DNA of 64,000 nucleotides from Phyllobates terribilis (taxonomy: Eukaryota). Below the pieces are notes generated by a model that was given only the letters and a program-made list of their open reading frames with translations, was not told the origin of the DNA and ran no database searches. The DNA lies in assembly GCF_046119375.1 (NCBI RefSeq), contig NW_027362769.1:101804001-101868000 (forward strand), in the 5' to 3' direction. Below, in pieces: positions 21,212 to 48,525 of this stretch. How positions within the stretch are numbered: the first letter of the stretch is position 1; each line of letters begins with the position of its first letter. The translations under genes were made by a program, and so were the position numbers.

Positions 21212-21456
21212 ATTGCCTCTTCAGAGATGGAGAACTCTATAGCACCACCTATTGGAAGCAGCGATCCTACAAGTCACAATCGACCCTTGTGCCTTGTAAG
21301 ATCGCGGCTTCCAATAGGTGGCGCTATAGAGTTCTAGTCCTCTTCCTCTCTGAAGAGGCAATTTGCATATTAAATTTCCCAGAGGAGCATTGCACAGCGA
21401 ATAAGCCTCCTTACATTGGCATGCCAGAGCCGATATGTCACTCTCCTCAAGGAGAA
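21212..21456 (+). mobile_element. Fragments of the hammerhead-bearing 330-nt repeat: inverted piece 21212-21288 plus forward piece 21293-21456 with the promoter-like module
   Basis: Aligns by eye to 48437-48525 and overlaps 35823-35830 (CAAGGAGA). Confidence 0.8.
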
Positions 21457-22246
21457 AAATTAGACTAATTTAGTTTTACATTTTAAAAAATATATATATA
21501 TTTTATTACATATTCAAATGAGGTCTCATTGCTGCAATTAGCATCCTCCGTCCCCTTAGCTTGGTTGACAACTGATCCCCGGCACTGCACCTCTGCACGG
21601 ACACTGCAGAAGCACACTGAGTGTGCCCGCTACTGCAGGATCATGTGTGCAGCGAGCGGCCACCACAGACAGGAGAGAGGGATGAGAGTGCGCCTGCACC
21701 GACACCGGCCTCCTGCAGCGTCAGTGCAGTCATTCAGTGCTGTGGATTCAATTCAGGCAGCGCAAGTGAGCACTGTCAATGAAGCTAAGGGCAAGAATGT
21801 TAAATGAGGGGGCGGAACAGTGCACTGAACTCTTGGCCACACCAAGGGTGCACCGAGTAGCCCTCATTTGCATATGTACTAAGTCCCCTATATAACTATG
21901 TAAGTGGTTTAATTTGAGTTTGGAGAGGGGAAAGGGGGGCAGAGTCCCTTTAAAATAAGGAAACATGTATCATCTTCAGCCCGTCTGTATCAGATTTAAA
22001 GAGAGTGGGACTGTACTCCATCATTTCTAGTTACATAGACGCCAATGGAGCGGGAGTGTGTCTGGTTCCCCACTATTCCATTCAAACAGGGGACTAAGGA
22101 AATGATCTTGGTCCTCATGATGCGTGGGGATCCAAAAAAAAATAATCAGGCACTTACCACCTATCCATAGGATAGGAGGTAAGTTTTGATCTTGGTACTG
22201 ATTCTTTAAATGCTTTCACTATATTTTCAAAGCCATCAAAACTTAC

Positions 22247-22363
22247 CTTTGATTTCACACACTGCCATTTTAATACTTCCTTTGCTGCCCTTGCAGACGT
22301 CATCCTGCGAGTCATAGTAGGATAAGATGCCATTATCTAGTACAAACCACCGAGGCTGCCAAC
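22247..22363 (-). CDS. PLEKHA3: PLEKHA3 coding exon 2
   Basis: (G)[42 protein letters not shown] flanks; 117 bp; phase matches neighbours. Confidence 0.97.
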
Positions 22364-24048
22364 CTGCAATTACAGAAGAAAATAGTAGGTCAACTTCATT
22401 AGATAACGTTGGATGGACGGTGTATCACACGTTGCGACTCATGTATCTACCAATAAACTGTCGTTCGTATACCAAATGGCATTACCCTTCTGCCTGCCCA
22501 AACACACAGCGCCTCCACATGGATGGCTAGTGTAATTTCCCCCAGAGAGAATATGCATAGGTGCGTCTGGGGTATGGAGAGTTGGGGTGCACTCAGCGGA
22601 GGAGGAGAGCCACTGCTGTCAGACCAAGGCATGTGCCCCTGTAACTGAAGAAGATTCATGATTCTCTCCCGGAATTGGCACAAAGTGCAGATGACCTTTC
22701 ACGCTTACACAAATATGCGTGAATGAGACAAAGATACATGCGGAAATCAGCACTAATCCAATAAGTCGCTAAACGGAAAAAGTTGTACGTAACACTATGC
22801 AAACCTTTCACAATTGTGAGTACACATGTATAATATTTACAGAATAAGGCTCCATAGACTCACATTGTAAAAGTGACTTCCAGTGTACACAAACCCCTGT
22901 GTGATCCAGGTAGTCTGGAGTTCAAGTCACGTCACTCAGAAAAGGACCGAAGCAAACGTGGAAATCGAGGAAGACGGCAATTGGTAAGTATTTTAATACA
23001 ACTGTAATACATTACAGACATATTTGGCAAATTTTAGAAAATACCATGTATGGTGGGAGTGCTTCTTTAAAAGGGATGTTCAGGACTTTGTAAAAAAATT
23101 TAAGAAAAATGTGGGGTAGAAAGGAAGCCAGTGCTCTGTCGATGTGACATCAGCAGAGGCAGGCGAAGCCGGCAGGAGCGCTCTGAAACGGGCACAAAAG
23201 GCAAAAATTGCCCCCACAGAAAACAATGGCTAATGTTACAAACTGGAATGTGGAAATCAAAAAAGATGCAAAAAAATTGGTCATTAATACATTTTAAGGC
23301 CAAGTCACTAACCCCTTGTTTTTGTCACCTTGCAGGAGCCATAGCCATAAGAGCTTCTGTTTTTGCAGGACAAGTCTTAGTTTGCAATTGCACCACTAAT
23401 TTTATCAGATATTGTGATGGAAAAACAATTCTAATTTTCATGTGCACTATTGATTTGTGAAAAAAAAATAAAACAAAGGTTGCACATACCAAATTGATAA
23501 AGAAAGAGGTGTATATATATATATATCGCATATCTTAATTTTTCAGTTGATGCAGGAGTACGAGAGCTTCATTTTTGCAGGATATGCTGTCGTTTATACG
23601 GGAACCGTATTGGACCAGATTGCTGCATTAGACACTGTGGCACAGGTGGATAGTAGATGCAGATTTAGAATAAGATTCATGTTAATTTTTTTCTCATTGA
23701 TATCTTTTACTCTGGATGCAGTGTGTGAACACAGGCGTGCAGCACCCCAGACACATAACTAATGATAATAGTGATCTGCTCTGAAAACAGCCCCTAAATC
23801 CAATTATACTATTAGCCGGACAGCTTATCTCAGCTTCCAGGTCAGGGAACCTGTCACCATTATAGTGGTAAAATGTAGTAGTAAAATGTCCGATGTCCAG
23901 AACACTGGCTCAGTAACGTGGAGCCATCTGGCCGCAATCAGGTTCTGGCCACTACTTGCTGCGTGTTGCCAACAGAATTACGTGCGGGATTTCTACATGT
24001 AAAATCTGCAGCATTTTACAGGACTAGGCAAGTGGATGAGTTTTTAAC

Positions 24049-24419
24049 TTAATGGGGTAGTACACTATTTTTTATTTTAAAGACTGTCTAACTTTAGGAT
24101 AGGCCATCAATATCTAATAAGTGGAGCTGCGATACCCGGCACCCACGGCAGCTGGATGTTCTTGGTTGCTGCCGAACACTGAAGCTCTGTCAAAACTGTA
24201 GTTGCAGCAGCCGGGTACTGAAGATCTACCTCCTATTAATAGGGCGTGCATCTGCAGTACCCGGTCGCAGCCACTATAGTAATGACGGAGCTGTGTTCCA
24301 GAGATATTCAAGAAGCTGATCGGCAGGGTGTGCTGGTTTTCGCACACCCACTAATGAGATATTGATGGCCTCTCCTAAGAATAGGCTATCAATAAAAAAG
24401 TAGTGGCCAACCCCTTTAA
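24049..24419. mobile_element. TTAA-flanked MITE (T2/Kolobok-like)
   Basis: TTAA at both ends, CAACCCCT right terminus, internal GGATAGGCCATCAATATC inverted repeats. Confidence 0.7.
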
Positions 24420-46700: not shown

Positions 46701-46743
46701 TCTCCTGATGAAGCAGTCAGCTAGGCTTCGAAACGCGTAGAGA
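46701..46743 (+). ncRNA. Minimal Penelope-type hammerhead ribozyme (palindromic stem III)
   Basis: TCTC-CTGATGA-A-GCAGTC(AGCTA)GGCTTC-GAAA-C(GC)G-TA-GAGA; ACGCGT palindrome; GUA triplet ending at 46739. Confidence 0.7.
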
Positions 46744-47715
46744 TTAAACCACGAAACGCGTAGAGATTAAACCACAATACTTATTCTAATTCCTTTTCTG
46801 GGCATTCCAATTCATTAAGACGCCAGTAACGCAGAATAACCTCCTGTTCACACCATTTGATTTCACACTTGTATTTCTGGTATTTTACACCTTCATATAT
46901 TTTTAGACGCAATCCTACCCCATTATGCCCTACATGCAATATTTGTAGAGCAACGAAAGTTAACTATAATAAAAGTTTATGTATGTGCACAGTGGTCCCC
47001 ATAGTAAAAGGCATGACTAGGATTATGTATCTAGCTCTGGATATAGAAAGTGCTGAGGTCACAACCAGCCCTTGGTGTATGAGGGACCAAAAGCCCCTGG
47101 GCCACAAAATAATAGTATAGAAATACTACAAATAGCACAGTGTACCTGAGTTCACTATTAAAGATTTTTTGCATTGGCCTCCTGAATCTTTAAAGGGTTT
47201 TATCAGGATTCATTTTTCATGTGCACTGGCTTGTACTCGTTCAAAATAATAAACTGAGAGGTAACACCACCTTCCACTGCTCCAGCACTACTACTCCGCC
47301 GCTGCTCCAGTGTTTGTAGGCTGCAGCGGTGAAGTCACGACCATAGGGCATGTGACTGCTTCAGCCAATCAATGGGCTTAGTGGTCCGCAAAGTCTACTG
47401 TGGCGTCACTGCTGAGTCCAGTAATTCGCTACAATATTCACGTGTGCTGTAGTCGTGATGTCACCCATGCAGCCTTTCAAAGACAGCAGTCTTTGAAGCA
47501 GTGACGGAAAAGTAGTACTGGAGCAGTGGAAGGTAATAAGAATTCTGCTGATAATTTGGGGATCCCCAACTATTATACACTGACTTGGATTCATTGTTCC
47601 TGATGACTCCTTTAGGATAATTGTCCAATTCAGATTGATCATACTTCAGCATGTTGTATGCCAAACTTTAAAGGGAGTAAGTTAAAGAGGACCTCTCACT
47701 GGAATTTTTGATTTA

Positions 47716-47917
47716 GGCCACGGCCCCACTATCAGTATTTGGTCAGTATTTTTTCTCAGGAGTGGGAGACAAAACCAGGAGTGGGTGATAAATGCAGAAT
47801 TGGTGACTTGTTTCTATTATACCTTTTCTCTGATTGTTCCTCATCTGGTTTTGGCTCCAACTCCTGAGAAAAAATACTGACCGAATACTGACCAAAACTG
47901 ATAGTGGGGCCATGGCC
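47716..47917. mobile_element. PIF/Harbinger-type MITE; related palindromic MITEs occur at about 6720-7490, 18220-18400, 42180-43220 and 61240-61660
   Basis: TIR GGCCACGGCCCCACTATCAG / CTGATAGTGGGGCCATGGCC; 3-bp TSD TTA. Confidence 0.75.
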
Positions 47918-47960
47918 TTAAGATGAGTATCTCCTCCAGTTGGTGCTTCTCCACCGATTT

Positions 47961-48525
47961 TGACTTAGGATAAAAGCCAAACCAGAATCTCAATTTGGGA
48001 TTTATTGCCCCTCCTCAGTGAAAATCGTTTTTGTTTTTGCAAACTGATTCTGGAAGAGTTTTCTCTTTTTCTTCTGTGCCCCTCTGTTCAAAAGTCATGT
48101 CCCCAAGTAGTCATGGCGAAAAATTTCCCTTCAACCAACTGGACGTATACAGCAGACCTTCTCTGTGGGTGTGTTGCTTCTTCTCTGACACTGCATAATC
48201 AAAACACCTGCCCACAGAGAAGAACTACGGTATACGCCAATTTGGTAGAATTTTTAAGAGCAGGGGGTATAACTTTGAAACAGAGGGGCACAGAAGAAAA
48301 TGAAAAACTTTTCCAGAATCAGTTTGCAAAACCAAAAATGATTTGCACTGAGGAGGGGCAACACCCTGAAACACCGTGTCTGCAAACTGAAATTCTGGTT
48401 TGGCTTTTATCCTAAGTCATATTGCAAGGCTCGTTAAAGGGTCAATATTGACTTGTAGGATTGTTGCTTTCAATAGGTGGCGCTAGAGTTCAAGTCCTCT
48501 TCCTCTCTGAAGAGGCAATTTGCAC
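47961..48525 (+). mobile_element. Hammerhead-bearing repeat copy (48341-48525) with a diverged inverted duplicate (47961-48112)
   Basis: Arms 47961-48112 and about 48261-48420 are reverse complements; the minus-strand copy lacks the GAAAC half of the ribozyme. Confidence 0.8.
48342..48386 (+). ncRNA. Type I hammerhead ribozyme with complete catalytic core
   Basis: TTTGCA-CTGAGGA-GGGG(CAACA)CCCT-GAAA-CA(CCG)TG-TC-TGCAAA: stem I 6 bp, stem II 4 bp (G.U closing), stem III 3 bp, GUC cleavage triplet ending at 48380. Confidence 0.85.

Follow-up and report, generated by a model that had tools for sequence, protein, structure and literature searches.

A dispersed 330-nt hammerhead retrozyme of a frog with two internal 3'-end sites and a candidate snRNA-type promoter

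The 64,000-nucleotide (nt) stretch of a frog genome analysed here (the window) contains three pieces of a short non-coding repeat, of 137 nt (48381-48517), 95 nt (21361-21455) and 98 nt (35831-35928). A sequence-only reading of the window had proposed that these pieces tile into a 330-nt circular unit with a hammerhead ribozyme and an internal small nuclear RNA (snRNA)-type promoter. Their lengths sum to 330 nt, and when joined by script they match the consensuses of the two subfamilies recovered from the genome in 296/330 and 298/332 columns, both in agreement with the proposed tiling. The unit also closes on itself as had been suggested, since genomic hammerheads follow one another at spacings of 326 and 321 nt, and runs of 2.84 and 4.20 units occur. 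The evidence below identifies the 330-nt unit as a non-LTR (long terminal repeat) retrozyme of a frog. We further suggest, with a probability of about 75%, that it is a non-autonomous element mobilised in trans by a Penelope-like protein with reverse transcriptase (RT) and GIY-YIG domains.

The window pieces represent three independent insertions (A, B and C) from two subfamilies; the piece at 21.3 kb is 94% identical to subfamily 2 and 85% to subfamily 1. In the list below, coordinates are positions in the whole window and unit positions are circular, with subfamily 1 counting 329 nt. H1 (unit 180-200, around 185) and H2 (unit 277-300, around 285) are the two internal end sites described further on. 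SPH/Staf and proximal sequence element (PSE) are the names that we take to apply to the promoter-like boxes.

21200-21211, plus strand: left target-site duplication of insertion A; 11/12 letters match 21465-21476 in direct reading
21212-21288, minus strand: inverted segment of insertion A, unit 96-180 of subfamily 2, with its 3' end at end site H1
21287-21465, plus strand: forward segment of insertion A, unit 105-275 of subfamily 2 (94%, aligned to 21457)
21361-21368, plus strand: perfect octamer ATTTGCAT, unit 177-184, with H1 at its 3' edge
21376-21394, plus strand: SPH/Staf-like box, 7 nt behind the octamer
21441-21454, plus strand: PSE-like box, unit 256-269, doubling as a 5-bp hairpin ahead of end site H2
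21465-21476, plus strand: right target-site duplication of insertion A, direct reading
35810-35819, plus strand: left 10-bp target-site duplication of insertion B, identical to 36007-36016
35819-36007, plus strand: insertion B, running from unit 259 through the start of the unit to 183 and lacking stretches of 51 and 14 nt; its end is at H1
35870-35953, plus strand: extended type I hammerhead in insertion B; its lower stem begins at 35870 and the cleavage position follows 35928
35875-35880, plus strand: predicted transcription start in B, placed from the position of the PSE-like box
36007-36016, plus strand: right target-site duplication of insertion B
47960-48049, minus strand: incomplete copy of the 5' part of insertion C in reverse orientation; it belongs to a local inverted duplication that takes in flanking DNA
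48342-48524, plus strand: insertion C, unit 1-183, 95% to subfamily 1, ending at H1
48348-48380, plus strand: intact hammerhead core of C; the GUC cleavage triplet ends at 48380 and the lower stem is without its 5' arm

Two of the three insertions carry target-site duplications of their own, of 12 bp with 11 matching (21200/21465) and of 10 bp (35810/36007). Behind its aligned part, the forward segment of A retains a remnant of H2, as read from the sequence. Inverted junctions at two of the three loci had been taken as signs of retro-insertion. This holds for the locus at 21.2 kb, which is a typical head-to-head insertion, but not for the one at 48 kb, where the inversion belongs to the local duplication and includes flanking DNA.

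The type I hammerhead spans unit positions 310-64 and has a lower stem of 12 bp, a middle stem of 5 bp, an internal loop, an upper stem I of 6 bp, a stem II of 4 bp with a 5-nt loop, a stem III of 2-3 bp and a GUC triplet. The 6-bp upper stem I with its UAC bulge presumably resembles that of the Schistosoma Sm-alpha hammerhead. The core is intact in 65/95 and 27/40 copies. In the window it is intact at 48348-48380, whereas the hammerhead at 35.8 kb is broken, the G of GAAA being replaced by C at 35916. The base of the extended stem, which had been placed at A35876, is A35870; A35876 lies inside the lower stem, yet within the predicted start range of 35875-35880. Comparison of the subfamilies revealed that the loop-closing pair of stem II (17:23) is G-C in 77 subfamily-1 copies and C-G in 23 subfamily-2 copies, the other subfamily-2 copies having G-G (8) or G-C (7). 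In the lower stem, pair 317:57 is U-G in one subfamily and U-A in the other, and pair 321:53 is broken in subfamily 2. The circular consensuses fold with z-scores of -3.0 and -4.8 (60 shuffles each), and one 101-nt hammerhead copy folded alone gave z = -1.2. The unit thus carries a type I hammerhead with a compensatory change in stem II, for which cleavage is predicted. The nine letters of stem III, read from the consensus, are self-complementary except for the middle one, which would suit a double hammerhead such as that described for axolotl in the accessible part of PMC7229834.

To place the unit in the genome, four queries were run against the 10.6-Gb assembly and gave 5752, 2265, 6590 and 3014 first-look candidates. 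The best 40 of each were scored and 110 loci were taken, of which three are the window itself and seven are duplicates, leaving 100 non-redundant loci. The family consists of two subfamilies of 329 nt (subfamily 1) and 332 nt (subfamily 2), identical in 297/332 columns (89%). Copies match their own consensus at a median of 91% in subfamily 1 and 94% in subfamily 2, that is, they are 5-10% decayed. The longest head-to-tail run is shorter than one unit at 31 loci, one to two units at 62, two to three units at 6 and 4.2 units at one; 69/100 loci hold at least one unit, 7/100 at least two and 93/100 fewer than two. Full-length and tandem copies thus exist, as the satellite-like interpretation of the window demanded. 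The long arrays of a satellite were not seen: among the best 40 candidates per search the longest run was 4.2 units. Young near-identical copies were likewise not seen among these candidates, the best matches being 91% identical to a consensus-like copy. Letters that depart from the consensus are shared about twice as often within a locus as between loci (26%/23% versus 11%/13%). No copy of the unit was present in 380 kb of arbitrary genome stretches and one locus was present in 468 kb unselected for the element; we estimate a copy number near 2x10^4, with a range from several thousand to about 10^5. The 330-nt family is also present in DNA sequencing runs of five organisms. Collectively, the family is real and dispersed and looks mostly old.

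The copies carry one hammerhead per unit, occur as short non-coding units in head-to-tail tandems with at least two hammerheads, and have neither an LTR nor an attached open reading frame (ORF), 0/50 of their 5' flanks entering a common element body. These are features of a non-LTR retrozyme, and both the assignment to this class and the earlier view that the unit is not the terminal repeat of an attached ORF are upheld. A satellite, or another DNA-level repeat spread by recombination or by a DNA transposon, would also be organised head to tail. This explanation is very improbable given the variable 8-14 bp duplications, the 5' truncation with fixed 3' ends and the head-to-head inversions described below, together with the lack of terminal inverted repeats and of long arrays among the 100 loci.

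Hits seem to be clustered in some chromosome regions, for example C12 247-281 Mb and C8 318-372 Mb; three loci lie within the 64 kb of the window, compared with one in 468 kb of unselected sequence.

The anatomy of the insertions was examined on segments of at least 40 nt (n = 162). Fifty of the 100 loci are head-to-head inversions, 48 have a single orientation and two are arranged otherwise. Junction duplications of at least 8 nt were found at 28/50 head-to-head and 11/48 single-orientation loci, compared with 49/2450 mismatched pairs, and at the head-to-head loci they measure 8-14 bp. The proposal of retro-insertion with inverted junctions and target duplications is borne out by these counts. 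The 3' ends of the 162 segments lie at H1 in 58 cases, at H2 in 73, at the cleavage site in one and elsewhere in 30. The 45 of 329 positions covered by H1 and H2 therefore hold 131/162 of the 3' ends, where 22 would be expected. H1, which lies behind the octamer, and H2 are ~100 nt apart. In the predicted circular fold of subfamily 1 each lies 10-20 nt behind a small stem-loop; the predicted fold of subfamily 2 has a hairpin at H2 only. The 3' ends spread over ~10 letters behind each site, with a few letters common to template and target, and the 5' ends are scattered round the unit. Where both ends of an inverted locus lie at a site, they pair H1 with H2 in 29/34 cases (p = 1.6e-5); in the remaining 16/50 inverted loci one or both ends lie away from H1 and H2. 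An internal duplication between the surroundings of H1 and H2 was considered and dropped as not significant (121/1000 shuffles).

There is no excess of 5' ends at the cleavage site (4/144 versus 12/323 at control positions). Since the 3' ends are internal and copies do not stop at the cleavage site, reverse transcription starts inside the unit rather than at the 3' end that the ribozyme would make, and it runs through the junction, which fits a template that is either a circle or an uncut multimer. The insertions show 5' truncation, partial tandem and inverted arrangements, a one-sided tail and target duplication, features of elements mobilised by Penelope. Penelope elements themselves are characterised by partial tandems, inverted 5'-truncated copies and a tail of 30-40 bp at one end only (PMC8557442, accessible part); in the retrozyme the corresponding extension, between the end sites, is ~100 nt instead of 30-40 bp. 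The insertion anatomy thus fits Penelope-type copying of circular or uncut multimeric RNA.

An older inverted insertion, at L199:24-620, was a chance find; it is ~82% identical to either consensus, mixes the letters of both subfamilies, and keeps the stem of the H2 hairpin with an altered loop.

The genome contains many Penelope-like elements, whose open frames reach about 780 aa. One of their proteins has named relatives in frogs (84%, 62% and 55% over parts) and in newt (44%); the closest being frog proteins, the anuran host deduced from the window is corroborated. Similarity to the unit was found neither in six Penelope-like loci (L192-L197, of 87 matches listed and from one clade) nor in four other stretches, a result that cuts both ways. 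It gives no partner for the retrozyme. It also speaks against the alternative that an autonomous Penelope-like element has the unit as its pseudo-LTR or 3' end, the copies seen here being its 5'-truncated insertions. That alternative would explain the Penelope-like insertion anatomy, and in the accessible part of bioRxiv 10.64898/2026.07.22.740005, 24/57 retrozyme families of Xenopus correspond to Repbase elements, of which 21/22 are Penelope-like. However, the copies wrap into their own 3' end, with at least one unit at 69/100 loci, their 50 5' flanks have no body in common, and the unit has a full type I motif with an extended stem I, unlike the minimal hammerheads near Penelope-like elements. 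We consider a pseudo-LTR identity improbable; a distant origin of the unit from a Penelope-like pseudo-LTR is possible.

The six loci L192-L197 (on C1, C4 and C7) carry open RT and GIY-YIG frames that are 566-781 aa long. Inverted repeats of 786 nt (98%) stand on either side of L192, and a pattern search found no hammerhead in any of the six. Within the window, 46690-46775 holds a separate minimal Penelope-type hammerhead, with its core from 46705 and its 3' half repeated in a duplication of 23 nt. On the minus strand, another hammerhead-like core lies at 46669; both motifs are unrelated to the 330-nt unit. One identical minimal hammerhead occurs on seven unplaced contigs (L211-L213 and four others), perhaps from a young or arrayed Penelope-like family. 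A pattern for other full type I families, with the retrozyme family itself excluded, gave 20 matches compared with 5 in a reversed control, mostly of the minimal Penelope type, and no octamer was near any of the 16 hammerhead-like matches examined.

Besides the missing partner, several observations weigh against a hammerhead-released retrozyme copied as a circle. Searches with Rfam hammerhead models gave no match in the window or in a 2.3-unit copy, so the hammerhead call is based on the conserved core, pairing and covariation. Most loci had been picked by queries spanning the cleavage site; in a set picked otherwise, 1/44 stop there. An uncut multimer would explain the read-through of this site no less well than a circle. 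In vitro cleavage is reported for 1/9 Xenopus retrozyme dimers and for none of the other 8/9 (bioRxiv 10.64898/2026.07.22.740005, accessible part). The inactive dimers support a template that is a linear multimer, cleaved slowly or not at all, or an RT that jumps between linear monomers, with no circle involved. So do the stem III of only 2-3 pairs in the monomer, the poor cleavage of amphibian hammerheads as monomers (PMC7229834, accessible part) and the longest insertions, which reach only 2-4 units. A linear primary transcript should, however, produce an excess of 5' ends at the predicted transcription start, and none is seen (7/131 versus 12/323 at controls); moreover, axolotl retrozymes of equal size yield RNA of which about half is circular (PMC7229834, accessible part). 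We therefore regard a linear template as rather unlikely.

The promoter-like boxes of the unit were compared with snRNA-type genes of the same genome. A PSE profile was built from seven genes (one U1, three U5, two U4 and one Y RNA). A motif beginning G/C-T-C-T-C-C lies at -59 to -67 in U1, three U5 types, two U4 types and one Y RNA gene, and in 5/6 of the RNA polymerase II (Pol II) genes (U1, U4, U5) YHCCCA occurs within 1-13 nt after an octamer, which in one gene has a mismatch. In the unit, a perfect octamer at 177 precedes an SPH-like start by 7 nt, and a PSE-like box lies at 256. The first half of the SPH-like box at 21376-21394 is a YHCCCA start as found behind the octamer of the genome's U1, U4 and U5 genes, and its middle is imperfect. 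Octamer and PSE are 79 nt apart in the unit, compared with 55-178 in real snRNA genes, and the region is without a TATA box. The predicted start, at unit 315-320, lies ~50 nt upstream of the cleavage site. Of 5000 shuffles, 88 and 85 contained the octamer considered alone and 1 and 0 the octamer together with YHCCCA, and this module was absent from 380 kb of random genome. The octamer and SPH-like box reported earlier from the window are thus present as a module like that of this genome's snRNA genes. A 3'-box-like stretch at unit 92-104 differs from the genome's real 3' boxes at 2-3 positions and was not used.

Among the snRNA genes themselves, those for U1 (with a period of 1079 bp), U5 (at two places) and U4 are grouped in large tandem clusters, with coordinates for U1/U5/U4 at C1:534.63-534.67 Mb, C8:197.9-198.1 Mb, C3:856.3-856.9 Mb and C11:574.2-575.7 Mb. 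At one of the U5 loci examined, the 3' box of a U5 gene is immediately followed by an old diverged copy of the unit in antisense orientation (L070:1653-1781, minus strand).

The proximal half of the proposed promoter is less clear. The PSE-like box scores 8.3 bits, within the leave-one-out range of the real genes (6.9-13.9), and this score was reached by 185 and 174 of 1000 shuffles (17-18%), which is not significant on its own. A second PSE-like site at 220 scores equally in subfamily 1 and is lost in subfamily 2. The middle of the SPH-like box departs from that of real snRNA genes, and the module pattern was written after inspection of the real genes and of the element. The three boxes differ between subfamilies at 1/40 positions compared with 28/205 elsewhere outside the ribozyme (p = 0.03), and unit 253-286 is unchanged. 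The boxes are therefore more conserved than the rest, as the sequence-only reading implied, but since the PSE-like box is the H2 hairpin and the octamer borders H1, selection for recognition by the RT could explain it. The distal module of the proposed promoter stands, while its PSE is insignificant alone and the conservation of that box is confounded with the H2 hairpin.

The insignificance of the PSE alone and the position of the boxes at the end sites favour the same retrozyme with the same Penelope-type copying and no promoter of its own, its RNA coming from read-through and its boxes being kept as, or near, RT recognition signals. We compared one unit with two polyA RNA-seq runs of a related organism, in which 1262 of 9.2 million and 790 of 12.9 million records matched it. 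Most of these reads pass from the unit into dissimilar sequence, and many show the variants of a small number of diverged loci; joints in head-to-tail order are present in the RNA runs and in the DNA run alike. Neither run, from libraries that would lose monomers and circles, showed piled starts or ends on the unit. The dominance of a few diverged loci among the reads is what read-through would give. According to the accessible part of a 2020 review, metazoan retrozymes seem to be without promoters and without a motif pointing to a helper (PMC7761336). On the other side, the SPH half-site behind H1 copies the octamer-then-YHCCCA order of real snRNA genes, the spacing and the missing TATA box fit a Pol II snRNA promoter, and a promoter of this kind is reported for newt satellite 2 (cited in PMC2220036, accessible part). 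A promoterless retrozyme is a serious possibility, somewhat short of even odds, and we judge from these motifs that the unit probably, though by no means surely, holds a working promoter.

Taken together, these results suggest the following cycle for a retrozyme mobilised in trans. An insertion of at least two units would be transcribed, most likely by Pol II, from its own octamer, SPH and PSE promoter, with a start near 315-320. Two hammerheads would release a monomer of ~330 nt, probably as a double hammerhead, because stem III is short and nearly self-complementary. A host ligase may then circularise the monomer, as the axolotl data suggest. A transposon enzyme, presumably the Penelope-like protein, would make a staggered cut of 8-14 bp, and complementary DNA (cDNA) would be primed at H1 (~185) and H2 (~285), each behind its small stem-loop and typically one per DNA end. 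The cDNA would run round the template through the cleavage junction, giving 5'-truncated, often head-to-head insertions of 0.1-4 units. Only insertions longer than about two units would regain the promoter together with two hammerheads and could act as sources, as could 7/100 of the selected loci. If the promoter works, a source needs the octamer and two hammerheads downstream, which would tie the promoter to rolling-circle multimers in the same way as Penelope is tied to its partial tandems.

A more tentative proposal, which we think doubtful as a whole, is that the unit is a frog descendant of salamander satellite 2 in which a host snRNA promoter was captured before the frog-salamander split, and that a Penelope-type enzyme rolls round the circle from two priming hairpins, one per DNA end. 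If this is true, the two end sites would represent the unexplained Penelope 'tail' in a form of 100 nt that is defined by its structure, and the unit would be a minimal substrate for working out Penelope integration, whose mechanism, inverted repeats and one-sided tail are described as unsolved (PMC8557442, accessible part). For the transcription and copying of animal retrozymes, the family provides direct genomic footprints in the form of target duplications, paired fixed priming sites, the absence of a stop at the ribozyme cut and a candidate snRNA promoter, and the copying and transcription steps could be tested with a 330-nt substrate.

Other repeats also lie in the window. At 51729-57265, a pair of nearly identical elements of 1.6 kb face opposite ways; each has terminal inverted repeats of 213 nt (99%), and their shape is Tc1-like. 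Further Tc1-like pieces lie at 18.4-20.3, 28.5-30.0 and 30.5-33.0 kb. Minisatellites are found at 35204-35407 (period 29/58), 49191-49868 (period 56), 57936-58965 (period 30/61) and 63182-63483 (period 33).

The class, and its presence in frogs, are already in print, and novelty of the class in frogs is not supported: the accessible part of bioRxiv 10.64898/2026.07.22.740005 reports non-LTR retrozymes in 7/7 amphibians, including three Xenopus species, with a mean of 316 bp, and links Xenopus families to Penelope pseudo-LTRs. The frog unit resembles the known amphibian retrozymes (axolotl Rtz_331 and Rtz_353 in PMC7229834, and those of Xenopus including REP4_XT), as far as the available accounts go, in its ~330-nt non-coding unit with one type I hammerhead and a weak stem III, in its dispersed monomers and short tandems, in its stable circular fold and in its co-occurrence with Penelope-like elements. 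Its promoter-like boxes, target duplications, inversions and fixed 3'-end sites are features that the accessible accounts of those elements (PMC7229834 and the preprint) do not describe. The available main text of bioRxiv 10.64898/2026.07.22.740005 does not mention promoters, target sites, snRNA or the octamer. In the open literature we found nothing on the promoter or insertion anatomy of frog retrozymes; subscription journals, Repbase/Dfam and preprint supplements may already hold the family.

Like Penelope-like elements and non-autonomous partners such as MRC1 of Chlamydomonas, in the accessible parts of PMC8557442 and PMC2377424, the retrozyme combines 5' truncation and partial tandems with an inverted 5'-truncated copy, an extension at one end only and a candidate promoter that tandem arrangement would restore, for which Penelope needs its partial tandems (PMC2377424). 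In contrast to these elements, it has no ORF, a full rather than a minimal hammerhead, and a predicted promoter of snRNA type rather than of LINE (long interspersed nuclear element) type. With Schistosoma Sm-alpha it shares a short repeat, a type I hammerhead and an internal promoter, which is predicted in the frog unit; Sm-alpha has an RNA polymerase III promoter, whereas the unit combines boxes of Pol II snRNA type with the lack of a TATA box and with four consecutive T in its transcribed strand.

Newt and salamander satellite 2 is said to have been described by Epstein and Gall in 1987 and by Coats et al. in 1994 as a repeat of about 330 bp with an extended hammerhead. The frog unit is like it in its ~330 bp, its extended and internally looped stem I and its snRNA-type promoter, which is reported for newt and predicted here. 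It differs in its frog host and in that no long arrays were seen, and the likeness concerns described features rather than sequence. Since the host is not a caudate, the unit is at most a homologue or analogue of caudate satellite 2. Two features are undescribed in the readable literature, namely that two internal end sites are used as a pair and that the distal module is of snRNA type.

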